Assembly (NCBI GenBank): GCA_964553135.1
Contig: CAZKJL010000001.1
Span: 563,946 to 627,945 of the forward strand
Length of the DNA: 64,000 nt
From: an uncultured Candidatus Peribacteria bacterium
GTDB taxonomy: Bacteria; Patescibacteriota; Gracilibacteria; Peribacterales; Peribacteraceae
Direction of reading: 5' to 3'
Shown here: piece after piece, positions 31,414-47,504 of the stretch
How the letters are laid out: each line of letters begins with the position of its first letter
How positions within the stretch are numbered: position 1 is the first letter of the stretch
Made by a program: the position numbers and the translations under genes
Notes under the pieces: model-generated
Databases searched by the model: none
The model's input: only the letters and a program-made list of their open reading frames with translations
What the model was told of the DNA's origin: nothing

Positions 31414-31465
31414 AGAAAGGATTATGCTTCAACTTGTGGAATAGTGAAAAAGTTTTCTACAAACG

Positions 31466-31495: not shown

Positions 31496-31653
31496 GAGAT
31501 TTTTGAAAATAACACACTATCTCATATTGTCTACATGGCCACCACCCTCCCCCAGGTTTCCGCTCTCCTCCCATCACCCGTCTTAAGCCCCACCAAAAAC
31601 TCTCCAGAGTCTCATCCCTCTCTGTTTCTGAATAAATTCTGTATGATGGAGCG

Positions 31654-33441
31654 ATGTTGGGCATCTTCCGCGTACTCTTTGGCAAACAAACATCAGGCAA
31701 TTCCCTAGTTTCCCAGTCCCCAGCAAAGAGTAATTCAAAGGGAACTCCATTTATTGATATCACTAAGGCAAAAATAGTTGTGCTCCCCAGGCTGCCCACA
31801 GCCAATGAATATCAAAAAGAGGGCATCTCTCATCCTCAGGAATACTGGGAGAGCTACAACAAAGGACAATCGCTCTATGGCAGAGGATGGTACGAGAAAG
31901 CCAAGGTGGAGTTTCTAAAGATTTACGATAATGAGCATGGGAATGCGTACTTCAGCCATCTCCTGCGAACGTACAGGCAGGGCGCAGAACGGTTTATAGA
32001 GAAGAAGAAATACGAAGATGCTCTACGCGAATACACGGAAATGTTTATAAAATGCCCTAATACAACGAATACGGATGTAAGGAAGTACAATAAACTCATT
32101 GATGCGATGGGGGCAGATGTGAAGAAAAAGCAGCTTATTGAAGTGGAGAAAGAGGAACCTGAATTTGTCTGCGATGGAAAAGTGATTGCCTTCCTTTCGG
32201 AAGCGAAGAAGCCCAAAGGCTTTAAGATTGAATACGATAACGAACGGCTCTCCCAGTATGCCCTTCGCAACAAAAAGCAGACGCTCACACCGCTGCTTCC
32301 GTACATCGTAGTTGAAGGCAACACAGTGCAGTACGCGGATACGGTTGAGTTCCCAAAAACGAGCCGCAAGCTCTACAGAATAAAAACAATACCAACTCCC
32401 TCTACCCCCTTCATGTTCAGTACGGAGGACTTACAGATTTACCTCTCTGACTGGCAATTCAATGAGCTACAGCACTTGGATGCATCCAGGTACACATCAG
32501 AGAAATACCATCTTCGGTGCATTGATATGGCTGGCGATCTTTCCGCTTTTGTCTTCACCATCGTTGATGAATGCTACCTAGTGAATGAGAATTTTAAGGT
32601 ATTCGGCGTATGGAGAGTTCCCTACAAAATTGATACGCAAGATGCAAAATATAAGAGAGAAACAAGGAGCGGAAACAATGGCAATGCTCAGAATACTGAT
32701 GTGCGCGAGGCACTGAATACCTTGGGAATCTCCAAAGATCAGCCCACCACAGACGATGTGAAACAGGCTTTCAGGCAGTTAACGAAGCAATATCATCCTG
32801 ACAAATACAAAGGCGAGGATGCGGAAGAGCGCACGAAGGCGATCATTGGCGCGTATGAACTCATTAAGAATGCGGACTTGCAGGGTGTGAATGCAGCGGA
32901 CATGGAAGATGAGTACTGGATGGAGGTGACACACACCTCAACATTTAATGCACACGGCTTTGAATTCACACTGCAAATGGGAATGGTGGTAGACCCTTCA
33001 GACTGGATATATGGAACTGGAATGGCGAAGGATGGCTCTCGTATTTACCTGGGTTGTTACTCAGGAAAAGTGTATTCCATCAACACGGAGGGAGTTGCGG
33101 ATATGGTCTACGTTATCCCCAGCGCAGAGCCAATATCTGAGATAATGGAATGCGGCGAATACCTTCATATATCTACATACTCACAGGTCTACATTATTCA
33201 TATAGAAGAACAGCGATTCATTAAAGCCATTCAACTGCATGGAGAAGAAAACGGTGCATCAGGATACGTTAAATACTATGAGGATGGATTCGTTCATGTG
33301 CTGGGTGATGCAGTTACAATCCATGACTGCAAAGGCGAAAAGTTAGGTTCTGTGAGCTTCGCAAAGAGTCTAAAATCTATCTGCGTTGCAGACGGGAAAT
33401 TCGTCTTTGAAACAGCTAGCAAACTGTATTTGTTTGGATGA
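31654..33441 (+). CDS. J-domain (DnaJ-like) protein with TPR-like N-terminal region and beta-propeller-like C-terminal region
   Basis: Central J domain DDVKQAFRQLTKQYHPDKYKGEDAEERTKAIIGAYELIKN with the HPD motif. The C-terminal roughly 170 aa have repeated beta-strand units (GSRIYLGCYSGKVYSIN, YLHISTYSQVYIIH, GFVHVLGDAVTIHD, GKFVFETASKLYLF). Confidence 0.7.
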   Translation: MLGIFRVLFGKQTSGNSLVSQSPAKSNSKGTPFIDITKAKIVVLPRLPTANEYQKEGISHPQEYWESYNKGQSLYGRGWYEKAKVEFLKIYDNEHGNAYFSHLLRTYRQGAERFIEKKKYEDALREYTEMFIKCPNTTNTDVRKYNKLIDAMGADVKKKQLIEVEKEEPEFVCDGKVIAFLSEAKKPKGFKIEYDNERLSQYALRNKKQTLTPLLPYIVVEGNTVQYADTVEFPKTSRKLYRIKTIPTPSTPFMFSTEDLQIYLSDWQFNELQHLDASRYTSEKYHLRCIDMAGDLSAFVFTIVDECYLVNENFKVFGVWRVPYKIDTQDAKYKRETRSGNNGNAQNTDVREALNTLGISKDQPTTDDVKQAFRQLTKQYHPDKYKGEDAEERTKAIIGAYELIKNADLQGVNAADMEDEYWMEVTHTSTFNAHGFEFTLQMGMVVDPSDWIYGTGMAKDGSRIYLGCYSGKVYSINTEGVADMVYVIPSAEPISEIMECGEYLHISTYSQVYIIHIEEQRFIKAIQLHGEENGASGYVKYYEDGFVHVLGDAVTIHDCKGEKLGSVSFAKSLKSICVADGKFVFETASKLYLFG

Positions 33442-33447
33442 GATGTC

Positions 33448-34767
33448 TTATTGAATCTGAGCCTCTGGTGTCCCAGTAGGGAGGGTTTCGGTTGCCAGCT
33501 TCGGAGGAGCTATTAGCTCAGTGACCATCTCTGGTAATTCTGGAAGTTCAGGCAGAAGGTTGCCCATGTCTTTCACCTTTTCCAGTGAGCGCGTCACGCT
33601 CTTCTGTCCAAGCCATGACTTGCCCACAGCATCGTTCCACGACTTAGAGGCATACTCTAGCCCTTTGTGAACGCCAACGAGCCTTTGAACGAAGTTCTCC
33701 AAGCGTCTACCCAGTTCTTTCACTTCTACGGAAAGTGCCTGAGCTTGTGTTGCAATTCTGTGCTGCCGCCATGCGTCAGCAATGAGCCAAATGAGAGGCA
33801 TGAGCGTTGCAGGACTCGTTACAATGACTTTCTGTGCCGCACAGTCCTGTAGCAACTCCTGGTCACATTCAAGTGCTGCTCTCATAGCGGCCTCACTGGG
33901 AATGAAGATCACAACGTAAGGTACTGAATCAGGTACGAACTCTTTATATTCGCGTTTTGTTAAATCTTTCACGCGATCTCTGAGCTTCGTACAAAACTCT
34001 TTATGCAGTAGCTTGCGCTCTTCATCGGTCTTAGCGTTATCTGCCGCCAGATAACTCTCGTACAGGGAGGCCTTGGCATCAATGGCAAGGGAGCGGCTGC
34101 TATGAGGGAGTTTAATGATGCAGTCTGGACGCAAACGGCGTCCCTCATCATCCAGGGATGTTGTCTGAATTGTGTAATCCGTTCCTTCTCTCAGATCACT
34201 CATTTGCAAGATATTTCTCAGCACTAACTCTCCCCATCGTCCGCGTACTGCGCCGCTAGTCGTTAGAGCGGTTTTAAGATGCTGAGTCTCCTCTATCAGC
34301 TTCTGTTCCTGTGTGCTCAATCCCTCAATCTGTTTTTCTAGCTGCGCGTACTTCACTGTCCTATCTGTCTCAAACTGAGTGATCTTGTCATTCGCACTCT
34401 TTAGCTGATCTGTCAGACCCTTCACTATGGATTCAATGGCTTGTTTACTGAGTTCCATTTTTCCCTCTGCTGCCGTAGTGATCTGAGTGAGGTCTTTTTT
34501 GGCACTGGCCTCATACAGTTTAGCCTCCTGCTCTAAGACTGTGGATGCCACTGCTTTAAAAGTGGTCTCCAATTTCTTCTCTGTTAACTGCATATCCTGG
34601 ATACGCAGATCGTAGGCCGTCTTAAGGTTCGCGATCTCGCTTTGATGCTGTAGCTCCTTTTGTACCATCTGGCCTCTCAGGGTGGCTATCGCAGCGTTAC
34701 GCCAAAGAAACACACCTACGCCTCCCAGCAGTCCGCCTAGGCCAATGAATAGAAGGTTGGTGAGCAT
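33448..34767 (-). CDS. rmuC: DNA recombination protein RmuC
   Basis: N-terminal TM helix, long coiled coil, and RGRWGELVLRNIL...LRPDCIIKLP...LAIDAKASL, the RmuC nuclease-like core. Confidence 0.85.
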   Translation of the reverse strand: MLTNLLFIGLGGLLGGVGVFLWRNAAIATLRGQMVQKELQHQSEIANLKTAYDLRIQDMQLTEKKLETTFKAVASTVLEQEAKLYEASAKKDLTQITTAAEGKMELSKQAIESIVKGLTDQLKSANDKITQFETDRTVKYAQLEKQIEGLSTQEQKLIEETQHLKTALTTSGAVRGRWGELVLRNILQMSDLREGTDYTIQTTSLDDEGRRLRPDCIIKLPHSSRSLAIDAKASLYESYLAADNAKTDEERKLLHKEFCTKLRDRVKDLTKREYKEFVPDSVPYVVIFIPSEAAMRAALECDQELLQDCAAQKVIVTSPATLMPLIWLIADAWRQHRIATQAQALSVEVKELGRRLENFVQRLVGVHKGLEYASKSWNDAVGKSWLGQKSVTRSLEKVKDMGNLLPELPELPEMVTELIAPPKLATETLPTGTPEAQIQ

Positions 34768-34815
34768 TTACGAATGGGAGTGAGTCTACCTCTGGGAGCT
34801 ATTTCTTCCAATGGC

Positions 34816-35238
34816 TTAATGGTTACGCCAATAATCAGAGACTTTCCGTGACTGAGCGAAGAAAAACTTGAGCCGCCCATCTGCATCCTCTTCTTTGGGA
34901 ACAAGGTACCCCAATTGCTCTGCTAAATCGTAAAAACCGTCCCCAGGTCTCCATGCTTCTTGGTTGTACACGATGGAACTCATCAGGAAACGTTCATTTT
35001 CATCCGTAATCTTCTTTGCATACTCCTCTGTTAGCTCACCCAGCATGTGGCGAAGCGCGAAGGAGTTAGCGTTCAGATGGATATGAGGAAGCTGATCATG
35101 CAGTCGGTCAGATAACTCACTATAGCTAATGACCCCCTCTGGGCTTTTGGCAATCGCGATAAGAAGCAGTTCAATCTTCTTCTTAGTGGGTTCCCACTCC
35201 ACGTCATCTTTGCCCATGTCATTGCGTATTGGTTCCAT
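34816..35238 (-). CDS. Hypothetical protein upstream of rmuC
   Basis: ORF 48 nt upstream of rmuC on the same strand. Start set at MEPIRND (35238) to leave promoter space; the ORF extends to 35307. No family recognised. Confidence 0.45.
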   Translation of the reverse strand: MEPIRNDMGKDDVEWEPTKKKIELLLIAIAKSPEGVISYSELSDRLHDQLPHIHLNANSFALRHMLGELTEEYAKKITDENERFLMSSIVYNQEAWRPGDGFYDLAEQLGYLVPKEEDADGRLKFFFAQSRKVSDYWRNH

Positions 35239-35310
35239 ACGAGAAAAAGGAATTGCGGTAAAGTGGGCTAAAATATACAGTAAAGACGCTTTCTTTTCTA
35301 CGCGCATTTA

Positions 35311-36276
35311 GTGAAGTTTGGCTTCCGCACACCATCACTCAAAAAAAGATTCGCAGCCAGAACATCTGTGAAGCGATTCGTGCGGCACTCTATGGGATTG
35401 AAGGCTCCTAGAGGAATGGGGATGCTCACAAACCCCAAGAAAGCCCTCTACAACAAGGTCTACAGGAAGACGACTTTCGGCATTGAGGATGTACTAAAGA
35501 GCGGCAAACGCACTGCATCTAAAGCCTCTCATTCTTCCGCTCCTGTTTCCCTCAACTCTATGTCCAAGCCGCCAATGGGTGCTTCTCAGAAGAAGATTTT
35601 ATGGATTGGAATTATTGGAACAATCGTCCTGATCTTCACTGGAGTTGGCGTAGTACTCGCGCCTTTCTTCCTCATTGGAGTGGTCTACTACTGGAATAAA
35701 ACTCCTGAAGTCAGGATGAAGAAGGCACTGACGATGAGCAATTACCTCTATAAGAAAGGACAGATACAAGAATCTATTGATGCTCTTTTGCCTTTTAAGG
35801 ATGCCAAAAACTATGAGGTCTCTAGCCGCCTCGCACATCGGTACGGACAACTGGGAAACTATGCAGAGGCAGAGACGTATGGAAGTTTTTGCTACGAGCG
35901 GAACCCTCATGACCTGGAGAATTTATATGTGCATTCCATCACTCTCTTTAATTTGAAGAAGTACAAAGAGTCGCAAGCAGCACTCTCCATTCTCCCAGAT
36001 TCCGCGCAGACAGAACCCATATTCGCAAACATCATCGGTGCGAACTACAACGGCATGGGGCAGGAAGATATAGCTGTAGAAATTTATAAGAAGTGCCTTG
36101 GCAGAAAGCAGAACATTGATGGTGAAGAGATCAGCATAGCCATTAACCTGGCGAAGATTCTCATTGAGAAAAAGAAGAAGGCAGATGCCAAAAAGTTCCT
36201 TCTGAGAATCCTCGCAGTTAGCCCAATGCATGAGGAAGCAACGGAACTGTTGGCGAAGACAGAGAAAAACGATTAA
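35311..36276 (+). CDS. Membrane-anchored TPR-repeat protein with basic N-terminal motif
   Basis: GTG start. N-terminus KFGFRTPSLKKRFAARTSVKR...GMLTNPKKALYNKVYRKTTF, TM helix ILWIGIIGTIVLIFTGVGVVLAPFFLIGVVYY, then TPR-like repeats. Confidence 0.6.
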   Translation: MKFGFRTPSLKKRFAARTSVKRFVRHSMGLKAPRGMGMLTNPKKALYNKVYRKTTFGIEDVLKSGKRTASKASHSSAPVSLNSMSKPPMGASQKKILWIGIIGTIVLIFTGVGVVLAPFFLIGVVYYWNKTPEVRMKKALTMSNYLYKKGQIQESIDALLPFKDAKNYEVSSRLAHRYGQLGNYAEAETYGSFCYERNPHDLENLYVHSITLFNLKKYKESQAALSILPDSAQTEPIFANIIGANYNGMGQEDIAVEIYKKCLGRKQNIDGEEISIAINLAKILIEKKKKADAKKFLLRILAVSPMHEEATELLAKTEKND

Positions 36277-39200
36277 TCGCTTATACGAATCTTCTCCGTG
36301 TTCTTGCACTTAGGATATTTGCTACATCCAAAGAACACTCCATATCGTCCCTTCTTGGGCTTCATTGTGCCTCCACAGCCAGGTAGCGGACACTCGTAAT
36401 GCTGCAAGCTCGTGATATCTATGCTCTCAGTCTTCTGCTTCCGTAGGTTACGAGCATTCGTTTTTGCGCCGCATTCGCTGCATTCAAAATAGACACCGAA
36501 CTTCCCATTCTTCCAAACCGTCTCACCATTGCAATCATCACAGAGAGGATTTTCTTTCTCGTGAATGCTGATGCCCTTTCCTCCCGAAGGAGTACAAACG
36601 AGTTGGGCTATCTGGCTGCATGTCTTCTTCCCAGGGATTCTCAACATGCTTTCTGAGGAGTTTGTATGAGAGAGAATGTTGAGGGAGCCATGCCAGAGAA
36701 TGGAGCCATCAATCACGCAAATCTTTTCATGCATCTTGGAGCGCAGATCAACAGTTACGCCTGTATCTATAAGGGCTTGCACGGCAGGAGTGAGGCCATT
36801 AGCCATGATCTCCCCCAGTTCCTCAATGGGACGGAAAACAAGGCGTATCAACACTCCACGCCTCTGGGCATCCTTCAGGAGTTCTACCCACCTACTAAGG
36901 CCATTGAGCGTCACGAATGGTGAGAAGATCGTGATGGATTTCTCCGCCTTCTGGATGTCTTGGGTGAATGCAGGATAGAAACTGCCTTCATTGAAAGCCC
37001 CTGCACTATCCATATCCAGCTTGAGCTTTGTTTTCGTGAGACGGTCTAGAGCGTCATGCCAGTCCTGATCGCCAATGGGTAACAGTTCGCGCACATCCAG
37101 CGGAGAGCCGTGCTTCTCAAAGTATTTCAGGATGTTCAATACCAACATGCCTTCCTTGGCGGTTCTCCGTAGGAACTCAAAATTGGCCACGAGGATGATA
37201 TGTTCCTTGGCGCGGCTGAAAGCCACATTCAGCAGTCTTCCGCCTTCCTCCTCTCTCTGTGATGCTGAGAGGAACCGCCCCAAGCGCACACCCTCTGAGT
37301 CCGTGAGATCAACAATCATTGTCTCTTTCTCATTCCCTTGGAAACGGTGAACGGTAGAAGCAAATGTTGCTGGCCTTCCCAGCTTATCCTCTATGAGTGA
37401 AGCAATGAGCTTCGTTTGCGCCGCATACGGAGACACAATGCCTAGTGTTTTATTTTCCTCATCTGCCTGAGGTAAATATTTCTTTTTAGCGAAGAAAGAA
37501 ACGATGTTACGAATGAGGAGCGCATGGAACAGGTTGTAGCGCGAATACCCTCCCAGTTTCATGGAAGCCCACGGATGGAATGCGGACGTATCAACGTATA
37601 ACAAAGGCTCTTTGGAAAGGGGCATCTTGGAGACATTCTTCCCTACGCTCACATCTGGAATCAGAGGATGATCGTAGTAGAAATGTTCATTGATGCAGTC
37701 ACAGATGGCTTTCTTCATACGGAACTGAATCTGGAGCGCACAAAGGTACTCAGGAGGCTTCTTGGACTGCACTTTCTCAGGAATGCCAGCCATCTCAAAC
37801 ACGTCTTTCTTGAGCCATTCCAGAGCCTTTGGCTCATCAGACATGACAATGGGTGAAAGCTGTCTGAAGTCCCCAGCGATGACCACGGATTGCGTAGCAA
37901 GCCCAGAGGCGTAATACGTCATGGGAAGCATGACCATGGAGGCTTCATCCACGATCACCACATCAAACTCTCTATGCAGATGCGACTCTAAGAACGTCCT
38001 GTAGACGGTTGTAGCCAGGATGCGGCAGTTCTTGAGTACCTGTTCACGGACGGCTGCTAACTGGGTATCAATCTCCTTCACTTGGAGGTACAGATTCTCA
38101 ATCTGCTTCTCTGTAGTGGCAATGGAGGAAGGATACGATACAACGTTAGGATGCTCCTTGAGCTTCGCTTCAATATCCTTCGTCAGTGCCTCTAGCTCAT
38201 CTGCTTCCTTCCCTGCATTGGCAACAGCCTTATCAATCTCTGATGCTGCGTCCACTGAGGATTTCCGCATGATCTCCGCTTGGCTCATCTCTCGCATGAT
38301 CTTTTCTGGATGCAAACCCAGCACCATGCGCTTGAGGGAGCCAGCGTTCTTCGCTCGTGCCAACTTCTCCTCCAAGGAGTCCTTTTTAGTCTGATACTGA
38401 GATATCTTTGCCGCCAACCCAGAGCGTTTCTGCTGATGGGCTTGGAGGGTCTTTGCGGAGAATTCCATCTTCTTTTCCGCATCCTTCAGTGCCTGATGGA
38501 AGCGGATGGCTTCTTGCATCGGCTGTATCTGTCCCTCTAGGTGTGAGATTTCCAGTACGAGCTTCTGCCTTTCCCCCTGTAGTCCTTCACTCAGGCGTTC
38601 CACGATCTCATCAATGAGCACTTGTTTGCCATGCTTCTCAATCAGTTCCACCTTCATGGCTGGCCCCAAGCGGATGACTGAGCCGCGTTGATACTCCTCA
38701 TCTGTCACTAAGCGCTCAGCGACTTTTTCCAGAGCAGTATCCACGGCAATGTTCGTATTGGATACGAGTAGCACGGAAAGCCCTTTGCGATAGAAGCCTT
38801 CTACGACTCGTGCCAGCGTTGTGGTCTTCCCTGTTCCTGGCGGCCCCCAGACATAGGTAACTTCACTGCCAAGAGAACGGCGGATGATTCTCTGCTTCTC
38901 CTCATTCATGCCGCCAAGCAGCGTCTCATCTAGCTCAGCATCAGCAGAGGCTATATTTCCTTCTCCAATGACCTTCTCAGCGAGTCCAGCGTTAAAAGCT
39001 GCCTCTCCGCTCTGCACTTCACCCAGACGCTCCTTGAGGCGTTCTAGAAGGAACGAGTTATCAATGATGATTCGCGCACTGGAGATCGTGTCTCCAAGAT
39101 CAGCCTCCAATGCCACGATCAATACGCCCTCATTCGTAGAAACGATGATGCCTGGGATATCATCTTTCCCACAGGCAAGGCGTATGGGTGAATCATCTTT

Positions 39201-39374
39201 CAACTGCGTACCTTCAATATCTTCTGAGAGAGGAAAGCGATAGAGGGTGTTTGTCCCTTCAGTCTGTAGGCGTTCTCCTCCGCGCACAGTGATTTGTTGA
39301 GAGTTACCTTTCTTGCGAATGGCGGCAACCTCTAGGCCCAAAGCCTCAATCATGTGCGTTAGATTGTCCGCCAT
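36273..39374 (-). CDS. SF1 (Upf1/DNA2-like, COG1112-type) helicase fused to a PLD/HKD nuclease domain and two topoisomerase-type zinc ribbons; Mokosh type II-like
   Basis: Walker A GPPGTGKT (aa 177-184), coiled-coil insertion, motif II VVIVDEASMV, FRMKK and VHRFQGNEKE helicase motifs, a single HKD motif MHEKICVIDGSILWHGSLN (about aa 881-899), then CDDC...CSEC and CPLPGC...GCSKYPKC ribbons. Confidence 0.8.
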   Translation of the reverse strand: MADNLTHMIEALGLEVAAIRKKGNSQQITVRGGERLQTEGTNTLYRFPLSEDIEGTQLKDDSPIRLACGKDDIPGIIVSTNEGVLIVALEADLGDTISSARIIIDNSFLLERLKERLGEVQSGEAAFNAGLAEKVIGEGNIASADAELDETLLGGMNEEKQRIIRRSLGSEVTYVWGPPGTGKTTTLARVVEGFYRKGLSVLLVSNTNIAVDTALEKVAERLVTDEEYQRGSVIRLGPAMKVELIEKHGKQVLIDEIVERLSEGLQGERQKLVLEISHLEGQIQPMQEAIRFHQALKDAEKKMEFSAKTLQAHQQKRSGLAAKISQYQTKKDSLEEKLARAKNAGSLKRMVLGLHPEKIMREMSQAEIMRKSSVDAASEIDKAVANAGKEADELEALTKDIEAKLKEHPNVVSYPSSIATTEKQIENLYLQVKEIDTQLAAVREQVLKNCRILATTVYRTFLESHLHREFDVVIVDEASMVMLPMTYYASGLATQSVVIAGDFRQLSPIVMSDEPKALEWLKKDVFEMAGIPEKVQSKKPPEYLCALQIQFRMKKAICDCINEHFYYDHPLIPDVSVGKNVSKMPLSKEPLLYVDTSAFHPWASMKLGGYSRYNLFHALLIRNIVSFFAKKKYLPQADEENKTLGIVSPYAAQTKLIASLIEDKLGRPATFASTVHRFQGNEKETMIVDLTDSEGVRLGRFLSASQREEEGGRLLNVAFSRAKEHIILVANFEFLRRTAKEGMLVLNILKYFEKHGSPLDVRELLPIGDQDWHDALDRLTKTKLKLDMDSAGAFNEGSFYPAFTQDIQKAEKSITIFSPFVTLNGLSRWVELLKDAQRRGVLIRLVFRPIEELGEIMANGLTPAVQALIDTGVTVDLRSKMHEKICVIDGSILWHGSLNILSHTNSSESMLRIPGKKTCSQIAQLVCTPSGGKGISIHEKENPLCDDCNGETVWKNGKFGVYFECSECGAKTNARNLRKQKTESIDITSLQHYECPLPGCGGTMKPKKGRYGVFFGCSKYPKCKNTEKIRISD

Positions 39375-39381
39375 AGTTAAT

Positions 39382-41487
39382 TTAGTAGTTGTAATCCTTC
39401 ATGCAGTAGCTGCCGTTAAGTGAATAGCCAGCGTTACAAAGGCATCTCTCATCCTCAACGCTGAAATATCCACCAGTCCCACAATACGATTTACGAACAC
39501 AACTGCCGTCCTTTGGGTAGTAATCGCTATCGCAGATGCAGCCACCAGTCTGCTGATTGAAGGTTCCGCCGTAGCAAGAAGGCTCTCTCACACAGCTTCC
39601 ATTCTGCTTGTAGTAGCCCTCATCACAATCACATGCGCCCGTCTGTCTGTTGTAGGTTCCGCTATAGCCACAAGCAAGGTATTCACTGATGCATGTGCCG
39701 CCCTGTGATACATATCCAGTGTTGCAGTAGCACTTCCCAGCATCCTCATCAAAACTGCTGTTATATGGACAATCCACTTCTTCGTAGCATTTTCCATCTT
39801 TAACGTAGTAACCGTAATCACATTCACACTGTTTTGCCGTGTAATTAAACGTGCTGTTTGAGACGCAGTTTGGAACCTTTACACATGTATTGTTATTGGC
39901 GTAGTAGCCAGTATTACAAACACAGCTTGCCTCTGCGTAGCTATAGAAAGCATTGGAGCCAAATTCTGAGCAATCATGCGTTGGAGTGGGTGCAGGAGGT
40001 GGAGTGCTAATGGTCGGAGTGGGAGGCGTTGTTTCACGATAGGTTGGCTGTTGCTGTGGAGTGCCAGACGTTCCGCTATTGAAATCAGAGGGGTCAAGAT
40101 AAGCCACACCTCTATGGCTCTCTGGGATGTTGCCCAAGAACGTCTCAACGCTGCTTGCTCCAATGGCAAACTTTACGCCATCAATGCTAAGGGTATTTAC
40201 GCCCACTACTTCACTTGCCGTATTCAATAGCGGCCCTCCAGAGTTACCATGAGTGATCTCCGCATCTGTTTGTATGAACTCCATCCCAGAATTAGAGGTG
40301 CGAACGGCACTAATAATTCCCTTTGTGATGCTCTCTGTGAAAGACTGAGGGCTACCGACTGCAAACACAGTCTGCCCCTGCCTTGCTGTTGATTGCAGGG
40401 ACAACGATGGAAATGGACTGGGATAATCCACAACAAAATCACCATTTTGGAGTACGAGATTCGTAACAGCCAATGCAGCAAGATCATTTGTTCCTCCACC
40501 TGTTGCAATTACCTGTGCAATACGCGCACGTTTCTGATCATCAACGATAATTACAGGAGGGCCAGAGCCAAGTGCATAGGTTCTATCTTCATAGGCAACA
40601 GGCTCAACAACGTGGAAGTTTGTAATGAGTGTGTAGTCATCAATGAAAAAGGCTGTTCCTTGCGAAACCGTATCATCGCCGCCTGGAACGATGACTGTAA
40701 CTACAGATGGAAGTGCTTTAGTAAGAACTTTAGAGGCATCGCCATCCTGTCTCCTAATTCGCTCTAGCTCCGCTTCAGCCTCATCCGTTTTCCCTCTCAA
40801 TTCATCCTGAACTTGCTGAGCTTCCCTGAGCAATTGGCTCACGCTGTTCTCAGGAGTGGCAATGCTGACTTTGATTTCTTCTTGTTTCTCCAGGGTGAAT
40901 TTTTGGGCTTCTGCAAGTTCAGAATCAGTCATACTCTTTTTGAGTTCCTCAAGAGCTATATCAGCTTTTTCATGCCCTTGAGCCTTAGCTAGACTCCACC
41001 AAACATAGGCCTTTGATCTACTCTCAGGTGCGCCCTTCCCTGACTCAAACACAATTCCCAAGTAGTACTGAGCCTCAGCATTTCCTTGATGCCCAGCCTT
41101 AGCGAACCATTCTTTCGCAGTGGGGAAATCCTGAGCAACTGCCTCTCCTCTGTAGTAGAGCAAACCCAGAATCAATTGAGCGGTTACGTTGCCCTGTTCT
41201 GCTGAGCGGCTTAGCCATTGAACAGATGTTGCAGCGTCTTTAGGTACTTCATTTTTCCCTACGAAAAATAATCCTGCCAAAGCCAATTGTGACTCCGCAT
41301 TCCCATCATTGGCGGATTTACGGAGAGCGACCATGTCTGTACTAGCCTCTGCCTTAGGGAAAGGGAGATCAGTTGTGCGATCTGCGAATGCACGAACTGA
41401 AAGAATTGCTAGAACGACAATAGAAAGACAGACTATGCTTCCCCCTATGACTAAGCCAATTTTAGAAGTATCAGGCTTGAGCGGCAT
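39382..41487 (-). CDS. Membrane-anchored Sel1-repeat / trypsin-like serine protease / Cys-rich-repeat protein
   Basis: N-terminal TM helix. Sel1 repeats (GNAESQLALAGLF, GNVTAQLILGLLYY, GNAEAQYYLGIVF). Coiled coil. Protease triad contexts TNFHVV, NDLAALAV, GNSGGPL. Pro-rich linker. Six repeats of about 32 aa with four cysteines each (C-x-C-x2-GYY-x4-6-C). Confidence 0.75.
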   Translation of the reverse strand: MPLKPDTSKIGLVIGGSIVCLSIVVLAILSVRAFADRTTDLPFPKAEASTDMVALRKSANDGNAESQLALAGLFFVGKNEVPKDAATSVQWLSRSAEQGNVTAQLILGLLYYRGEAVAQDFPTAKEWFAKAGHQGNAEAQYYLGIVFESGKGAPESRSKAYVWWSLAKAQGHEKADIALEELKKSMTDSELAEAQKFTLEKQEEIKVSIATPENSVSQLLREAQQVQDELRGKTDEAEAELERIRRQDGDASKVLTKALPSVVTVIVPGGDDTVSQGTAFFIDDYTLITNFHVVEPVAYEDRTYALGSGPPVIIVDDQKRARIAQVIATGGGTNDLAALAVTNLVLQNGDFVVDYPSPFPSLSLQSTARQGQTVFAVGSPQSFTESITKGIISAVRTSNSGMEFIQTDAEITHGNSGGPLLNTASEVVGVNTLSIDGVKFAIGASSVETFLGNIPESHRGVAYLDPSDFNSGTSGTPQQQPTYRETTPPTPTISTPPPAPTPTHDCSEFGSNAFYSYAEASCVCNTGYYANNNTCVKVPNCVSNSTFNYTAKQCECDYGYYVKDGKCYEEVDCPYNSSFDEDAGKCYCNTGYVSQGGTCISEYLACGYSGTYNRQTGACDCDEGYYKQNGSCVREPSCYGGTFNQQTGGCICDSDYYPKDGSCVRKSYCGTGGYFSVEDERCLCNAGYSLNGSYCMKDYNY

Positions 41488-42616
41488 GGTGTGAGTTTTG
41501 GAAATTTTGATATGCGAACGTGCCGCGCACTCCGTTTATTAAACCAAAAAGGAATACTATTGCGATTCCAATACCCGCTCCGCTGATCTGTCCTTCTGAA
41601 AACTGGAATGTCTTTTCAAGGATGAAGAGTACCAATCCAGCCACCGCTGCCGTACGAGAATAGAACTGCATACCTAATCCAATGACAGCAAAGAGAAGGG
41701 CATCCAACATTGCCCACGCATCAATACCACCTATGGATTGATCTGTAGCCAACGCAAACAGTGCAACTCCAGCAGTGAGAACCGCGATGACATACGCAAC
41801 TCCATAACCTTGCGCCACTGCCTTCTTCGCGCTCTCTATTGAATCAATTGTTAGGAACCACTGATTAGATGTTTTCTTCTTAGATGCAGTTACTATAGGA
41901 GTGGAAGCTGCCTTGGCAGATTGTTTTTTAGGAATGTCCATTTTCGTAGTAAAACCTTCCTGTTTCTTCCCCAAAAAATTGAGTTCCTTGGGGCCAAGGA
42001 TGCCAACACTGTATCCTGCTTTCTTCACCATTTTTATAGCATCTGCATACGCACAGAAGAACGCGATAATGCCAATGATGCCACCTAGAAGCAGTGAGCC
42101 TATAGCAGCGTATTTCCATGCGGATTTCCAGACCAATATCTCAATGGCAATCATGCAGTAAACGACTCCCAAGAATATAAGACCAGCAATCCCTGCTACA
42201 AAATCACTGTTAAGAATTGCAGCAAGAATAAGGCCAAGAATTCCACCCAGGAAAAAGACATTGCACCACTTCAGATGAACAGCGACCTTATCGGCTTTAC
42301 CGCTCTCTGATGGAACTGTTTTAACCAAAGCTGCTTTGGGTGGAGTGTGCGCTTGCGCTTTATGACTTCCAAAGCCCACATAAAGAACACAGTGGTATAA
42401 GCCCACTGCTACCAGATACACAACGAGGGGAAAAATGATGATTGCAGTCTTATCGTCCTCCTCCAGGGTCAATAAAATACCCAACAGCAAAGCCAATCCC
42501 GTGCCTCCTAAAATGAAAACTTCAGCGAGTCTGTTCCACCATTTTTCTTGTACTTCAAGCCTACGCGGAAACAGGGGCAGTTTCATAGCTTCAAAGATTA
42601 CAGGAGATGTAAGCAA
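41471..42616 (-). CDS. Multi-pass membrane protein (hypothetical)
   Basis: About 9-10 hydrophobic helices with a Lys-rich cytoplasmic linker. 17-nt overlap with the downstream protease gene. Confidence 0.6.
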   Translation of the reverse strand: MLTSPVIFEAMKLPLFPRRLEVQEKWWNRLAEVFILGGTGLALLLGILLTLEEDDKTAIIIFPLVVYLVAVGLYHCVLYVGFGSHKAQAHTPPKAALVKTVPSESGKADKVAVHLKWCNVFFLGGILGLILAAILNSDFVAGIAGLIFLGVVYCMIAIEILVWKSAWKYAAIGSLLLGGIIGIIAFFCAYADAIKMVKKAGYSVGILGPKELNFLGKKQEGFTTKMDIPKKQSAKAASTPIVTASKKKTSNQWFLTIDSIESAKKAVAQGYGVAYVIAVLTAGVALFALATDQSIGGIDAWAMLDALLFAVIGLGMQFYSRTAAVAGLVLFILEKTFQFSEGQISGAGIGIAIVFLFGLINGVRGTFAYQNFQNSHHAAQA

Positions 42617-42687
42617 GCACCAAGGCTAGATCGCATCGGAGGGGCTTATCCTATGCCAAGCACTGACGTTCTTTTCTACGCTCTAAC

Positions 42688-42900
42688 TCAGCGTCCGTGC
42701 TTAATTCGTGGGTCTTTCTTAGCTCTCTTCTGTCGTTCTTTATTGAACTCAGCAACATCAGCCTCTAGGAAAATTTTCCCAGCCGCTGTGTCTTGGAAGC
42801 GCAGTTTTCCCTTTTTAATCAATTCGTTAACTCTTGGCCTAGAGATGCCAAGGATACGAGCCACATCACCTATGCTTAAGACCTTTGGAAAGTTGTTCAT
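42688..42900 (-). CDS. Excisionase/MerR-type helix-turn-helix DNA-binding protein
   Basis: LSIGDVARILGISRPRVNELIKKGKLRF is an HTH_17-like pattern. Start at MNNFPKV. Confidence 0.65.
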   Translation of the reverse strand: MNNFPKVLSIGDVARILGISRPRVNELIKKGKLRFQDTAAGKIFLEADVAEFNKERQKRAKKDPRIKHGR

Positions 42901-43006
42901 AAAAAGCCAAACGTAGCGAAAACTCACACTATCGCTTGACTTTCTGTTTAGGTAGTTTGCACATAGATACTATCCATATAGAAAGGAGTCTGATAAATTA
43001 ACTTCC

Positions 43007-43408
43007 ATGTTTTCCATAAAGCACACCTTCGCCGTAATCCTTTCTATGATCGTTCTAGTCTCTTGCACCAAAGGGACAGACCCTAAGCTCTTGCAGGACG
43101 TGAGTACCTACAACGCCACTACACATCAGCAATACATGGAAACGTATCTGTCTTTTGTTGTGGCTCTTAAAGCAGGGGGATACGAGGAAACAGGAGACAG
43201 CATCAATAAATTCATGACGATTCAAGAGACTGCATCTGCGTTCTGGAAAGGGCTTGAGGTTCCTCCTGAGGCAGAAGGATACAAAGTACAAATGCTGGAT
43301 TCATTTGTAGGAGCCAAGGCAATAGACAAGCGATATGAGCAATACACCCAGGCCTATAAGTCGTTTCTCCAAACAGTATTTCCCAAAGGAGAAATCGCTT
43401 CTCAGTAA
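43007..43408 (+). CDS. Lipoprotein (hypothetical)
   Basis: Signal plus lipobox LVSCTKG. 133 aa. Confidence 0.5.
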   Translation: MFSIKHTFAVILSMIVLVSCTKGTDPKLLQDVSTYNATTHQQYMETYLSFVVALKAGGYEETGDSINKFMTIQETASAFWKGLEVPPEAEGYKVQMLDSFVGAKAIDKRYEQYTQAYKSFLQTVFPKGEIASQ

Positions 43409-43428
43409 GTCATTCCTTTCCTTTGCAT

Positions 43429-44586
43429 ATGGCTCCCAAGCCCAACATCCATAAACGTATCGCGCTCAGTTTTGGCGGATTCTTCCTGCTGCTTATGGCC
43501 TCCACTTCGTTTCTAGGTGCAGCAGAGCCAGTGATCACGGTTCCTCCAACTCAAGTCTATGCCAAAGGGAATCTTACCCTCACAGGCAGCATCACAGCGG
43601 ATTGCTTCTGCACAGTTAAGGCAACGCTGAGACTCGTGGAGGATTCAGGCAAGCCCTATGACCCCAAGGTAGTGGATGCAGCACTAGAGTTGAATGAGCA
43701 TGGGCAGTTCACCCATACTCTGTCTCTCGTAAACGATGAAAAGGATTCTGCCATCGGCATCACAGCAGAAGTCTCCCCTCGCTTCTGGTTCGGCTCACAG
43801 AAGACGGGCAAGGCATCAATCACTGTGAAGCCTCAGGAGACACCTATAGAGCTTGTAGACGCTCCTACGGAGTGGAAGGACAGAGAGATCATATTCACGC
43901 TCAAGCTGCTCTCAGGCTCCTCCGTAGACCTTAAGGGAGGACTGGCCACAGTACTAAGCAGTGAGCAGTATCCCTTCAAAGCAGAGTGGGCAGATATTCC
44001 AGGTTCCACGGATAGCAGGAAATTGGTGACGCTCAAAGGAGCGTTTGATACCGACTACAATCAGGAGTTTGAGGGGTTCAAGTTCACTGTGAAGGCGAAG
44101 GGCTACAAGACGCATGAAGAGACGATCAGGGTGAATAACCAGAACTACGATGCCAAGAGGGTTGCGGCGGACAAAGAGGCAAGCCAGAGAGAAATGAAGC
44201 TCCTGACGATGGAGCAGTTCAACTACGGTGACGATATCCAGGTTGCAGTGAGTAGGAACATCCCTAAGAGCAGAACCGTGGGATACAGGTACGTCCTCAA
44301 TCCTGATACATCTCACTTCATCCGCATTCTTGTGAGTGTAAAGAATGCCAGCTTGGGAGAAATCCATGTGAACCCCAACTACATCACGCTCAGAGACAGC
44401 ACTGGCTACACCTACAACCCTGATGAGGCTACCTACGGCCTCAACTATCTGGATGCCATTGATCTCCAGCCAGGCGGCGCAACCTCAGGTTGGCTGGCCT
44501 TCATCGTTCCCAAAGATGAGAAGGAACTGACGCTGATCTACAGCAGCTTTGATGGGACGATAACGAAGAAAATCTATGTGCAATGA
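43429..44586 (+). CDS. Secreted protein with C-terminal DUF4352-like Ig-fold domain
   Basis: Signal peptide. C-terminus ILVSVKNASLGEIHVNPNYITLRDSTGYTYNP...PGGATSGWLAFIVPKDEKELTLIY matches the DUF4352 pattern. Confidence 0.6.
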   Translation: MAPKPNIHKRIALSFGGFFLLLMASTSFLGAAEPVITVPPTQVYAKGNLTLTGSITADCFCTVKATLRLVEDSGKPYDPKVVDAALELNEHGQFTHTLSLVNDEKDSAIGITAEVSPRFWFGSQKTGKASITVKPQETPIELVDAPTEWKDREIIFTLKLLSGSSVDLKGGLATVLSSEQYPFKAEWADIPGSTDSRKLVTLKGAFDTDYNQEFEGFKFTVKAKGYKTHEETIRVNNQNYDAKRVAADKEASQREMKLLTMEQFNYGDDIQVAVSRNIPKSRTVGYRYVLNPDTSHFIRILVSVKNASLGEIHVNPNYITLRDSTGYTYNPDEATYGLNYLDAIDLQPGGATSGWLAFIVPKDEKELTLIYSSFDGTITKKIYVQ

Positions 44587-44864
44587 CCCTACCCCTCCCC
44601 CCACTTCTTTTAGGTTACGTCCTCACAAAGTGGCTTTAGCCCCTCGCGTAGAAAACTGAGCCTCAATGTCTCTCTGTAGACGGCAAATCCAGAGAAACAC
44701 ATAGACGATTTACGCATCAAGACACAGGGCGTATCCGTATCATTGTCAATTTTCGTTGTGCTGATGAGAAGCTGTTTTCGGCTAGAATATGAGTAAACCC
44801 TAAGAGGCGTAGCTGCTTAAGTACATTGTCAACTTACTGCGCTCTCCTTCGTTCCAAGAGGAAT

Positions 44865-45596
44865 ATGTATCAGTTAGAACTACAGCATGAAGACCAAAAA
44901 AGTGACTTACAGAAGCCACGATCTAATACTTTAAGCAAAAATAAATCAAGGATGAGGAAGGACATAGAAGAGCGTATTGGAAAGAGGTGGAGAGAAGTGG
45001 AGGACGATCTTAACAGTCGCATTCAGAACATGACGGAGCGTAGACACTGGCTCATCCGCTCCAGCCCTCAGATGCTTGCGGTTGCAGAGATGATATTGGC
45101 GCAAGAGAAACCCATGAAGATTGTGAGATTTCTACGCATGAAAGATACTCAAAGGTTTGGAGCCAACATCAGCGATGATGCTCTGCTACGACAAGTACTG
45201 CGATTTAAAGAGGAAGTAGTTTCCGCGTTGGAGAATGAAGAAGGGGATGATATTTCTATGAGCCGATTAGATTTCTACGCACGACTGTCAGGGAAGCATG
45301 TTGATATACACGCCATGATGACCAAGTTGATTCTTTTCCAAGAATCCAGACTCTGTATGGTTCTAGAAAAGGAAAATGAATGCACTCATGCCTGGATGAG
45401 AAATAAAGTAGACGGGAAGGCTGAGAAGAGGATGCAAAAAGCATGGAAAGAAGGCGGCAAAGAGCTTGATCTATACTGGAAACTTCTTATGTCCTTGGCT
45501 CTGTATGAAGCAATGAGTGGACGCATGAATCAGGAAGAACACGCGCATCTTCACCAAATCATCCGCACGAACAGAGAGTATTTTCCGCGAAGGTAA
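44865..45596 (+). CDS. Hypothetical protein (element-encoded)
   Basis: Long ORF in the forward gene block of the element. Start at ATG 44865 (a TTG at 44826 is possible). No family recognised. Confidence 0.45.
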   Translation: MYQLELQHEDQKSDLQKPRSNTLSKNKSRMRKDIEERIGKRWREVEDDLNSRIQNMTERRHWLIRSSPQMLAVAEMILAQEKPMKIVRFLRMKDTQRFGANISDDALLRQVLRFKEEVVSALENEEGDDISMSRLDFYARLSGKHVDIHAMMTKLILFQESRLCMVLEKENECTHAWMRNKVDGKAEKRMQKAWKEGGKELDLYWKLLMSLALYEAMSGRMNQEEHAHLHQIIRTNREYFPRR

Positions 45597-45638
45597 TTCA
45601 CTACAATGTGAAGGAGGTAGCAACCGATCTGATGACCT

Positions 45639-46574
45639 ATGGCGAAACTTATCCCACTCCCATCTGAGGAATTTAAGAAGCTGTCCCCCAGAGACAGGGT
45701 GGAAGCAAAGCTGTTGCTTTATAGGAAGCCAACACAGGAAGTCATACAGTATATCCGCAAGACATATGGGATGGAAAAGCCCACGGCTCTACCATCGTTA
45801 GATCGTGATGGTCTTTGTAGATATGCGAGACAATTGGTAGACGAATGGGGAGGAGCATTCTTCTCATCAGCAGACAGTGCCTTAGATATTGATTGGCTAA
45901 GCAACTACTGGATTCACTTCGTGTGCATTTTTGCAAAGCATCATGTGCTTCTACCACCTGATGATCTGGAAGAATTTACTGATGAGGAGGCTTACGCTTC
46001 CCTGGAAAAAGACAGGGCTGATAGATGGGCATGGGAAGGCAAATGCAGAGCAAGGCCAAACTATGATGATGAGAGATTTGATATAGAGGAATTCACAGAG
46101 ATGAAGGAGGAGGCACTAGAGGAACAATATGAACTGGCAAAAAAGAGTTTTGAGATTGCTAAGAAACGCCATAGCGATAAACAGATTATGGAAAGTGAGG
46201 ACTATTCGCCCTTTGATGACCGCATCGTATATAGCTCCCCCAGAGTTACGGTGAGCATGAGGCTTAATAAGGTGAAGGTACATCTCAATTCCAGGGCTAC
46301 GAAAGAGGACATGCTTAAAGCCTGGCATCATGTGGAGAGATGTCAGAGGATGATTAAGAGTGGTAAGGGAAAGGCAGCCAAGCACGATGAAGAGCTATTG
46401 GATATCTACAATGAGATTGCCGCATTGATGAGTGAGTGCGAGAAGGAGGGGCTGAGCAGTACGGCCACCGCAAAGAAGATTAATGATGAGCTAAACAACA
46501 TCCAAAAGCTCAAGTACTACAAGATCGGGTCTATGAGTAAGGTCATGCAGCGCGTCCGTACCTTGGAGTTTTAG
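45639..46574 (+). CDS. Hypothetical protein (element-encoded)
   Basis: 311-aa acidic ORF. No family recognised. Confidence 0.45.
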   Translation: MAKLIPLPSEEFKKLSPRDRVEAKLLLYRKPTQEVIQYIRKTYGMEKPTALPSLDRDGLCRYARQLVDEWGGAFFSSADSALDIDWLSNYWIHFVCIFAKHHVLLPPDDLEEFTDEEAYASLEKDRADRWAWEGKCRARPNYDDERFDIEEFTEMKEEALEEQYELAKKSFEIAKKRHSDKQIMESEDYSPFDDRIVYSSPRVTVSMRLNKVKVHLNSRATKEDMLKAWHHVERCQRMIKSGKGKAAKHDEELLDIYNEIAALMSECEKEGLSSTATAKKINDELNNIQKLKYYKIGSMSKVMQRVRTLEF

Positions 46575-46635
46575 GCCGCATAACCAGTACCGTTAAGTGT
46601 CACCGTTTTGATGACGTTTTTTTATAAGGTCTCTC

Positions 46636-46896
46636 GTGCTGACCAAGCATGTGATGACCAATCTGAAGAAGAAGCAACGGCAGTCTGCCCTATCCGCCTC
46701 TGAGATCAGGTGGAAGGTCGTCTATGCAGAGGCCTCAAAGGAATCTGAGAGGCTTCTTGATGATGTGGTAAGCAGAATTTACAGGTTTGGGATTCAGCAA
46801 AAACTCTTTGTGGAGAATGCCGATTGCACCGAAGCCCCCAAAGTCATGACCGTAACGGCAGCGATGCCTGAGGCCGTTCCTGCTTTGTCTTATTAA
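46636..46896 (+). CDS. Hypothetical protein (element-encoded)
   Basis: 86-aa ORF on the same strand as the block. Confidence 0.35.
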   Translation: MLTKHVMTNLKKKQRQSALSASEIRWKVVYAEASKESERLLDDVVSRIYRFGIQQKLFVENADCTEAPKVMTVTAAMPEAVPALSY

Positions 46897-46914
46897 TTTC
46901 CTTACTACTTTCTT

Positions 46915-47241
46915 ATGCATACCTTGATTTCCTTCTTTCCTTTCCAGCGGATAGAAGGCGAAGAAGAACTCTATCCGCGCTCCATACTAGGAACTAAGGC
47001 CAAGATTTTTCAGACCGATGATGGGTACGAAGTCCATGTTGTCTTGGCAGACGACAGAGTGGCGGATACAGGAGTACATCGCCCCTGCGAAACATATGAA
47101 GAGGCGGTTGCGTTGGCAGACGGAGTGATACGAGGCATGTCACTTGGCTACTTAGCAGGGGCATTGCAGTGGGAGGAGGACGGCGGACAACTAGATAACA
47201 ACGAGGAAGAGACCGAAACCAATTCCCCCTACGCATCATGA
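46915..47241 (+). CDS. Hypothetical protein (element-encoded)
   Basis: 108-aa ORF whose stop overlaps the next start (ATGA). Confidence 0.45.
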   Translation: MHTLISFFPFQRIEGEEELYPRSILGTKAKIFQTDDGYEVHVVLADDRVADTGVHRPCETYEEAVALADGVIRGMSLGYLAGALQWEEDGGQLDNNEEETETNSPYAS

Positions 47242-47504
47242 GCATATCCGAAATCCAGATAGTGCCTGTGAAGCCACAGGATGGCCTTATAGCGTTTGTA
47301 AGCTGTGTGTTGGATGGTGGTTACTTCATAGGCTCCATAGCCGTGCATACGAAGCTAGGAGGCGGCTACCGTCTCGTGTATCCCACTAAGCTGCTTGGAG
47401 ACAGACAATTGCACTACCACCATCCCATCACCAGGGAGATGGGTAAGCAGATTGAGGAAGCCATTATTCCTGTGGTGGAAAGAATGTTCTCTACTCACTC
47501 ATGA
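47238..47504 (+). CDS. SpoVG-like nucleic-acid-binding protein
   Basis: ISEIQIVPVKPQDGLIAFVSCVLDGGYFIGSIAVHT...YRLVYPTK...HHPITREMGKQIEEAI follows the SpoVG fold pattern. Confidence 0.55.
   Translation: MSISEIQIVPVKPQDGLIAFVSCVLDGGYFIGSIAVHTKLGGGYRLVYPTKLLGDRQLHYHHPITREMGKQIEEAIIPVVERMFSTHS

Follow-up and report, generated by a model that had tools for sequence, protein, structure and literature searches.

A putative surface-anchored Sel1-protease with an EGF-like cysteine-rich tail and a dedicated membrane partner on a mobile island of a Peribacteria genome

Among the HtrA-type serine proteases of bacteria, DegS is tethered by an N-terminal membrane helix, as the protein described below also seems to be. 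Fusions of Sel1 repeats with a trypsin-like core are also on record, and one of them, the Tryp-(Sel1)6 protein of Pelodictyon luteolum, was listed in 2008 as having 'indeterminate function' (PMC2605481). In the Peribacteria, cysteine-rich extracellular proteins bearing signal peptides are typical and have been proposed to serve in attachment (Anantharaman et al. 2016, PMC4736985). These proteins average 1,655 amino acids (aa), mostly lack a functional prediction and are weakly similar to cysteine-rich repeats of Myxococcus, and the organisms depend on others for amino acids (PMC4736985). Here we analysed a stretch of 64,000 nucleotides (nt) from the genome of an uncultured Candidatus Peribacteria bacterium (the window; contig CAZKJL010000001.1, positions 563,946 to 627,945), with emphasis on one gene, P0001, whose product joins a Sel1 solenoid, a serine protease and a cysteine-rich tail resembling epidermal growth factor (EGF) modules, and on the gene for a membrane protein that overlaps it. 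With moderate confidence, we consider that P0001 is an outward-facing, membrane-anchored S1C-type protease which carries an EGF-like rod, acts together with the membrane partner and carries out contact-dependent proteolysis at another cell.

P0001 is located at 39382..41487 on the minus strand of the window (C1:603330-605432 in the genome, G000) and its open reading frame (ORF) translates into 701 aa. An earlier annotation made from the letters and their ORFs (hereafter the sequence-only reading) had given exactly these coordinates, and the Sel1 repeats, protease, linker and Cys units that it named were all found. From the N-terminus, the minus-strand features are a hydrophobic helix (residues 10-31; 41395..41460), which is a probable uncleaved signal anchor according to the Kyte-Doolittle profile, the AlphaFold2 (AF2) model and the orthologue alignment; a Sel1-like repeat solenoid (residues ~56-180; 40948..41322); a helical spacer seen in the AF2 model (residues 181-255; 40723..40947), possibly a coiled coil; an S1C (HtrA-type) serine protease domain without PDZ (residues 256-455; 40123..40722), assigned from Pfam, the alignment and matches in the PDB; a Pro/Thr-rich linker (residues 456-504; 39976..40122) with the sequence 'TSGTPQQQPTYRETTPPTPTISTPPPAPTPT'; and six EGF-like units of four Cys each (residues 505-701; 39385..39975), recognised from the Cys register, a tail-only AF2 model and Foldseek. 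Nine full-length orthologues were found with 55–74% identity, one of them in a metagenome-assembled genome labelled Candidatus Peribacteria. The mean pairwise identity across the orthologues is 0.75 in the Sel1 region, 0.71 in the protease, 0.67 in the tail, 0.55 in the linker and 0.50 in the N-terminal anchor; the linker, thus one of the two least conserved regions together with the anchor, has a predicted local distance difference test score (pLDDT) below 50 in the full-length AF2 model, which was built on nine sequences. In the spacer, which the sequence-only reading had called a coiled coil, the same model has two long helices, at residues 188-210 and 216-248, and its pLDDT is low from residue 210 onward.

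The N-terminal half of the protein has its closest solved relatives among secreted or periplasmic Sel1 proteins and HtrA/DegS proteases. The Sel1 family (PF08238) matches three stretches of P0001 with 67.7 bits (cut-off 30.7), the region is modelled at a pLDDT of 80-89, and PDB sequence matches to Sel1 proteins reach down to 2e-56. Foldseek matched it to LpnE, LceB and AlgK with E-values of 1e-11 to 1e-6, including LpnE (6deh) with E = 9.5e-11 and a root-mean-square deviation of 1.5 Å over 147 columns. Moreover, residues 277-430 match Trypsin_2 with 78.8 bits (cut-off 27.6), and Trypsin matches with 43.3 bits. The triad, H292 in TNFHVV, D335 in NDLA and S416 in GNSGGP, is invariant across the nine orthologues, and the PDB sequence matches of the catalytic part are HTRA1/2, DegS and DegP, down to 1e-17. 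No PDZ domain was found in P0001 with Pfam, and the NCBIfam model TIGR02037 reaches only 77.8 bits against its cut-off of 416.2, while all other HtrA, DegS and DegQ models also stay below their cut-offs. Therefore, the catalytic domain, as judged from its sequence, appears to be S1C-like rather than canonical HtrA, and the intact triad makes it a candidate active protease.

Of the 25 Cys residues in P0001, 24 are located in the last 196 residues and only one in the first 505, so that Cys makes up 12% of the tail (Fisher p = 3e-13 versus the rest of the protein; binomial P ~2e-15 versus the genomic 1.4% Cys). They are arranged in six units of 31-35 aa (about 32), namely residues 506-540, 541-572, 573-605, 606-637, 638-668 and 669-701, each having four Cys with the spacing C-x12-15-C-x-C-x10-C. 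The sequence-only reading had described six EGF-like repeats of this length and Cys content, which stands, while its motif 'GYY-x-C' has to be corrected to C-x-C-x2-G-Y-x6-C. All Cys of the units common to the orthologues are invariant, and the unit count differs, being five in P0008, seven in P0009 and six in most orthologues, so that the units can be regarded as modules. Tandem Repeats Finder found no tandem repeat in the DNA underlying the protein repeats, and the array is therefore considered to be old.

Modelled alone with six orthologous tails, the tail gave a pLDDT of 86.6 and two beta-hairpins in each of the six units. Its top PDB matches in Foldseek are Pvs25, Pfs28, Pfs25, NELL1/2, Delta-like 1 (DLL1), Jagged-1, Notch-1 and SCARF1, with TNFR1 lower; this was the comparison that the sequence-only reading had recommended, and the leading matches are all tandem EGF arrays. 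Adenovirus fibre shafts, matched by the tail in a fold search of BFVD with 8–12% identity, were read as generic beta-hairpin rods and not as homologues. Five of the six units strictly fit the pattern C-x-C-x2-[GP]-[FYW]-x4-8-C, which we take to be the PROSITE EGF_2 signature; in the sixth, the G is replaced by D. In addition, the tail matches TIL_2 of Pfam through partial matches (30.9 bits, cut-off 24), and a PDB sequence search with the tail gave no meaningful relative. An EGF domain has six Cys with the disulfides C1-C3, C2-C4 and C5-C6. Aligned with this register, the four Cys of each unit would correspond to C2, C4, C5 and C6, and we infer that Cys1 pairs with Cys2 and Cys3 with Cys4 within the unit. 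The opposite possibility, zinc-binding ribbons of an intracellular protein, was rejected: the spacing is 12-15/1/10, there is neither CxxC nor His in the units, their domain partners are of the surface type, and no zinc-ribbon structure is found among the top 50 fold matches of the tail in the PDB. Thus, disulfide-type repeats, as in the sequence-only reading, agree with the Cys spacing, the lack of His and the EGF fold matches. The tail is not hypervariable but reaches nearly the mean identity of the catalytic domain (0.67 versus 0.71), which suggests that it faces a fixed ligand rather than an arms-race surface. Besides, N-S-[ST]-F-[ND] motifs (N-x-S/T sequons) lie at residues 544-548 and 576-578 in the first hairpin of units 2 and 3, and are conserved in all or nearly all orthologues.

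The tail module is not confined to P0001. An exhaustive phmmer search with the tail found 334 representative protein clusters at E <= 1e-3, 45 of them at E <= 1e-10. Since proteins of the Cys-rich extracellular kind have, in addition, been published as characteristic of Peribacteria (PMC4736985), the sequence-only reading overstated how unusual such repeats are in bacteria. The relatives match the Pfam families EGF_MSP1_1, DUF5874, cEGF, TIL and EGF_TEN, and no literature was found for DUF5874 (PF19202). Their fusion partners are PG_binding_1, PAAR, an autotransporter with Chlamydia-PMP repeats, subtilase, SH3_3 and a pilin N-methylation motif, contexts that would almost all be surface or secreted by their domain annotation, and 67 of the 149 tail matches listed have a hydrophobic N-terminus. 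In a genome of the same family (G003; locus L106, G003:C3:19500-25500), a minus-strand ORF of 702 aa begins with a signal peptide, which is followed by Trypsin_2, SLH and 4-Cys repeats of the same kind up to a terminal CSKY; from its sequence, it appears to be a second, independent coupling of an S1 protease with this tail in Peribacteria-like genomes, here with a wall-binding domain in addition. However widespread in clusters, the module was found in only one of 400 evenly drawn other genomes of the phylum and in three of 80 close relatives, and a full-length orthologue of P0001 was detected in none of these 80 relatives, including both same-genus and all 46 same-family genomes. The Sel1-protease scaffold has another distribution: Sel1-Trypsin_2 fusions are frequent in Planctomycetota, Verrucomicrobiota, Acidobacteriota and other phyla, and 42 of the 60 members examined begin with a signal peptide or lipobox. 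The GxSGG motif is recognisable in 47 of the 60, and 42 of these 47 end 77-94 residues past it. Therefore, the linker and the Cys tail are specific to the nine-member clade.

As to the location of the protein, the only segment with a Kyte-Doolittle value above 1.6 is at residues ~10-31, with no other window above, and AF2 places the N-terminal helix at residues 9-37. Its hydrophobic core of 22 residues would be long for a signal peptide that is cleaved, and the AxA-like -3/-1 site varies among the orthologues, both of which favour an uncleaved anchor. Within the helix, S8, G11, L12 and G16 are invariant while the rest of the segment varies freely; this GxxxG-like motif is compatible with helix-helix packing and may be a site for the partner. 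The host genome (1.36 Mb, 98.7% complete) contains no Omp85/BamA, which was detected in all seven diderm controls. It encodes VKOR (77 bits) and four Thioredoxin_4/DsbA-like ORFs as well as a fifth that a stop codon breaks up, no DsbB was found in it, and it has 26 SLH matches in about 14 ORFs. The interrupted ORF (G000:C1:836644-837213) has its Thioredoxin_4 match broken by a TAA stop and is a possible pseudogene. Owing to the lack of BamA, the VKOR and DsbA-like proteins and the SLH matches, the host is predicted to be a cell without an outer membrane, having a wall or S-layer-type envelope with many anchored surface proteins and the capacity to form disulfides outside the cytoplasm. An extracytoplasmic location of the P0001 domains is supported by the exported Sel1-Trypsin_2 relatives, the SLH-bearing paralogue and the autotransporter, type IV pilin-like, PG_binding_1 and PAAR contexts of the tail module, the secreted or periplasmic solved relatives of the N-terminal half, the EGF-type fold, the units free of CxxC and His, the BamA-less genome and the VKOR and DsbA-like proteins. 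None of the computational tests of location placed the domains in the cytoplasm, the outcome that the sequence-only reading had named as decisive against it, and its extracellular placement is thus upheld. Taken together, the structure and the location of P0001 are well supported, and its biological role is what we propose below.

The most specific feature of the locus, which had escaped the sequence-only reading, is the neighbouring gene. P0270 (41471..42586, minus strand, with an alternative TTG start at 42616) encodes a polytopic membrane protein of 371 aa and its stop lies 17 nt inside the protease gene, an arrangement by which the pair would be translationally coupled. A homologous partner with the same 17-nt overlap is present in eight of the nine protease lineages, and in the ninth (L097) an unrelated zinc-ribbon/transmembrane (TM) protein takes its position. 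The partners share a C-terminal membrane module of about 135 aa with 3-4 TM helices (WF-x-IDS...AKKA-x-AQ...GxRGT-x-AY), preceded by five further TM helices in the forms of 345-375 aa or by a zinc ribbon in the forms of 196-198 aa. P0270 has no match in Pfam, NCBIfam, PADLOC or PHROG, and a database search with the 371-aa partner returned only eight proteins of 345-375 aa, all on contigs of the protease orthologues. Furthermore, the related protein P0121 (L112/L113, 6001-7515) has a lipobox, Sel1, a helical region and a Pro-rich linker, and then about eight Cys units up to a C-terminal CGKEY, without any protease domain; no partner gene accompanies it, and three genes upstream are common to the P0007 locus (L095) at 38–52% identity. 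Hence, the partner tracks the TM-anchored, protease-bearing form.

In the reading that we prefer, the single N-terminal helix would anchor P0001 in the cytoplasmic membrane with the N-terminus inside and the C-terminus outside, leaving the remainder exposed on a cell without an outer membrane. Going outward, the Sel1 solenoid next to the membrane would probably be a docking surface for substrate or partner in place of PDZ, followed by the helical spacer, the HtrA-type catalytic domain, the flexible Pro/Thr linker and the six-module EGF-like rod at the distal tip. Each module would be held by its two disulfides (Cys1-Cys2 and Cys3-Cys4, that is C2-C4 and C5-C6 of EGF), probably made by the VKOR and DsbA-like proteins of the host. 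The ligand of the rod would most likely be a fixed one on a different surface, be it the wall or S-layer of the same cell or the surface of a host or neighbouring cell, and binding to it would confine proteolysis to the contact point. The gene overlap would give a fixed ratio of protease to partner, whose probable function is to gate the anchored protease or to dock to it. The most likely use would be contact-dependent processing or scavenging of proteins, or attachment, at the interface with another cell. This cell-contact reading fits what has been published for Peribacteria, namely their Cys-rich extracellular proteins and their dependence on others for amino acids (PMC4736985). The role of host-interaction or exclusion factor put forward in the sequence-only reading likewise stands as a suggestion. 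A bolder version, in which the pair is a mobile 'contact sheddase' of episymbiotic bacteria of the candidate phyla radiation (CPR), the rod binding a ligand of the host or a competitor and the partner-gated protease cutting surface proteins there, is tentative and we regard it as unlikely.

Several points weigh against the cell-contact reading. The charges flanking the TM helix are balanced or ambiguous and the charge rule leaves the topology unfixed; the basic N-terminus on which the sequence-only reading had relied does not serve as an argument, since the N-terminus is weakly basic (K4, D6, K9) and the C-side flank is also positive (R32, R37, K45). The N-in, C-out topology therefore rests on indirect evidence, and this orientation is probable rather than observed. 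In addition, the protease region is poorly modelled by AF2 with nine sequences, too poorly for inspection of the active site. The fold matches of the tail have weak E-values (1e-3 to 1e-1) and low TM-scores; low scores would be expected for a flexible rod of very small domains, and the match is to be read as a fold class, not as homology. No Pfam EGF family exceeds its cut-off on P0001 (EGF_MSP1_1 24.3/27, Pvs28 20.8/26, cEGF 14.6/26.6). Moreover, P0001 is the only Trypsin_2/HtrA-type protease detectable in its 98.7%-complete genome, so that a housekeeping role is conceivable; such a protease is present in 12 of the 14 control genomes. Finally, the operon with a defence-type helicase gene, amid defence-like cargo, points to a role in conflict.

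The housekeeping role would be that of an HtrA/DegP substitute in envelope quality control, which degrades misfolded exported proteins; the Sel1 repeats would take over from the PDZ sensor, and the Cys rod would be no more than a wall-spanning spacer. Such a role is in line with the solitary protease, its HtrA-like catalytic motifs and its best PDB protease matches, and with the finding that several relatives have ordinary HtrA-like ORFs of 365-540 aa instead. However, the gene lies on a low-GC mobile island and the same-genus and the 46 same-family genomes contain no full-length orthologue, so that P0001 is dispensable for the lineage. The lack of PDZ and the score of 77.8 versus 416 bits on the HtrA model also speak against it, the tail is at the free C-terminal tip beyond the enzyme instead of between anchor and enzyme and therefore cannot serve as a spacer for the protease, and HtrA quality control is not known to involve a dedicated membrane partner that co-evolves with the protease. 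We thus regard quality control as rather improbable.

The island is an integrative element of about 20.8 kb (29716..50520) that carries the two-gene module. Its GC content is 0.45-0.50 versus 0.55-0.60 around it, and the low-GC block begins at a tRNA-Met gene (29659-29734), whose 3' end is found as an 18/19-bp direct repeat at both boundaries (29716-29734 and 50502-50520). There is one recombinase at each end, a large serine recombinase (29713-31413) and a tyrosine integrase (49394-50323), and a primase is also carried. No phage structural genes were found with PHROGs; a prophage origin was therefore set aside and the block was read as an integrative island. The carriage on a mobile element noticed in the sequence-only reading is thus borne out in the window, but the protein is not confined to such elements, since genes for a recombinase, integrase or tRNA are missing from the 18 kb examined at the P0007 locus. 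Considering that full-length orthologues are absent from the 80 relatives, that the tail occurs in one of 400 genomes and that att repeats bound the island, we assume that the two-gene module is accessory cargo which moves among Peribacteria.

The gene immediately downstream of the protease gene (36273..39374, minus strand; 7-nt gap, same operon in the window) encodes a Mokosh-like protein with an SF1 helicase, a PLD nuclease and Top1-type zinc ribbons (AAA_11, AAA_12, PLDc_2, Zn_ribbon_Top1; MkoA 4.8e-61 and MkoC 4.4e-40 with PADLOC). It raises a second alternative, in which the pair acts at the surface in exclusion or defence, guarding the host of the element against phages or rival elements by cleaving receptor-binding proteins, the host's own receptors or pili. 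Surface and entry exclusion is carried out by pairs such as TraT/TraS, which likewise combine a membrane and a surface protein, and the present pair would be their proteolytic counterpart; we know of no precedent for an HtrA-type exclusion protease. The predicted co-transcription of the helicase-PLD gene with the protease gene favours this possibility, as do the RmuC-like, J-domain and other conflict-type genes of the island and the finding of the pair beside defence-type genes in four of the nine lineages (Mokosh-like helicase-PLD in three, Shedu SduA_C in one). On the other hand, the helicase-PLD gene is absent in six of the nine lineages, and the three elements with it have backbone genes in common (DUF4352 and HTH_17 in each, and a tyrosine integrase), so that the linkage may be due to common descent. 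P0001 itself has only generic protease-domain matches with PADLOC (RT-Protease_XI), the P0007 and P0002 loci have ordinary chromosomal or surface-protein neighbours, and a conserved, not diversifying tail is unexpected for a phage-facing receptor. An exclusion or defence function is therefore considered unlikely, though it deserves to be kept in mind. Obligate coupling of the protease to the helicase-PLD protein can be rejected with its presence in three lineages only, and the latter appears, from gene order, to be a facultative neighbour and not part of the core module.

The same adjacency, with a trypsin-like protease gene next to a nuclease gene in one operon, bears on a third alternative, that P0001 is a cytoplasmic protease with zinc-binding Cys repeats and its N-terminus outside, which cleaves and activates the helicase-PLD protein as in the Hachiman, AVAST and Lamassu pairs. 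Switching on a partner nuclease by proteolysis is an established means of defence (PMC12799240), the TM-flanking charges leave this orientation open, and the Sel1 matches include Sel1 fused to proteases, caspases, kinases or TIR domains. In the published nuclease-protease pairs, however, a nuclease with the metallo-beta-lactamase (MBL) fold is encoded upstream, the protease is fused to HamA, Avs or LmuA, and there is no membrane anchor (PMC12799240), whereas the nuclease here is of the PLD type, lies downstream and is absent in six of the nine lineages; P0001 was therefore rejected as a member of these pairs. The units contain neither CxxC knuckles nor His, their fold matches are EGF arrays, the same Cys module occurs in SLH, autotransporter, pilin and lipoprotein contexts, and a Pro/Thr linker followed by a tail with 12% Cys is atypical of cytoplasmic proteins. 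All of this makes cytoplasmic activation of the nuclease very improbable.

Several other neighbours were recorded. Upstream of the partner gene in the window is an HTH_17 gene of the excisionase/regulator type (42688..42927, minus strand; PF12728, E = 1e-7), and a DUF4352 protein of 387-463 aa, which also matches phrog_806, is encoded a few genes upstream in the three elements with helicase-PLD (window 43423-44586; L009 4779-6158; L097 5083-6474). In the other six lineages, the protease gene is followed by genes for DUF6804 and zinc-ribbon proteins, by Shedu SduA_C (one lineage) or by unrelated genes. The gene immediately downstream in three lineages without helicase-PLD (L006 10100-10507; L096 10156-10563; L115 4390-4737) encodes the small DUF6804 membrane protein, in some cases with a zinc ribbon, and may be an alternative accessory gene. 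In a contig from activated sludge (L114, 1029-3887), an SNase+SLH protein and a second SLH protein precede the partner-protease pair, and an SNase protein is also encoded upstream of the pair in L009/L010, which hints at clusters of surface hydrolases. A scan for promoters and terminators performed no better than on shuffled controls.

Returning to the cell-contact reading, all of its parts are of kinds known already, namely S1C-type proteases, Sel1 repeats, EGF-like Cys modules and Cys-rich surface proteins of Peribacteria. What is new is the three-part fusion, its strict pairing with a private family of membrane proteins and a 4-Cys EGF-like unit that curated models miss. This unit, poorly captured by such models, recurs in several hundred protein clusters, in many cases on surface proteins of bacteria. 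For the attachment of CPR/Patescibacteria to their hosts and the exploitation of these, only a small number of specific surface effectors has been put forward so far, and the module offers a compact candidate with a defined anatomy, which is mobile between Peribacteria and whose parts could be expressed in laboratory strains. If the sheddase version were true, attachment, feeding or exclusion where episymbiont and host meet would have a determinant that can be transferred horizontally, and the pair would be a bacterial convergence on the design of ADAMs and type II transmembrane serine proteases (TTSPs). If the role is an ordinary one such as envelope housekeeping, the value would be limited to annotation.

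Compared with HtrA, DegP and DegS (MEROPS S1C), P0001 has the same chymotrypsin fold, the H-D-S order, the TNxHVV, DLA and GNSGGP motifs and predicted export, but differs in having a Sel1 solenoid and a C-terminal EGF-like rod instead of PDZ, a private membrane partner and mobile carriage. The exported Sel1-Trypsin_2 fusions, mostly with a signal peptide or lipobox, share the Sel1 repeats and the S1 core with 25–30% identity over ~57% of P0001; unlike it, they have no linker, Cys tail (42 of the 47 with GxSGG) or partner family, and none has been characterised. In the case of Mokosh type II (MkoC), the neighbouring gene resembles MkoA/MkoC and a trypsin-like protease adjoins a nuclease, while the protease is no Mokosh component and the association is seen in three of the nine lineages only. 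The likeness to tandem EGF arrays (Pvs25/Pfs25/Pfs28, NELL1/2 and Notch ligands) lies in the signature found in five of the six units and in the two-hairpin layout, whereas the units have four Cys instead of six, lack the N-terminal C1-C3 loop and belong to a bacterial, protease-fused protein. A tethered protease combined with accessory modules is also the design of TTSPs. By analogy, P0001 resembles the ADAMs with disintegrin, Cys-rich and EGF modules, in which a surface-tethered protease bears disulfide-rich 'adhesive' modules that guide it to its targets (PMC2173380), although no homology of ADAMs and TTSPs to P0001 is implied beyond the S1 fold and they differ in domain order, in their unrelated anchor and modules and from its bacterial origin. 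From the Cys-rich extracellular proteins of Peribacteria, finally, P0001 is set apart by its 701 aa with a defined protease, Sel1 block, EGF-like repeat and partner gene, but it shares with them the lineage, the Cys-richness, the predicted export, the proposed attachment and the variation among strains.

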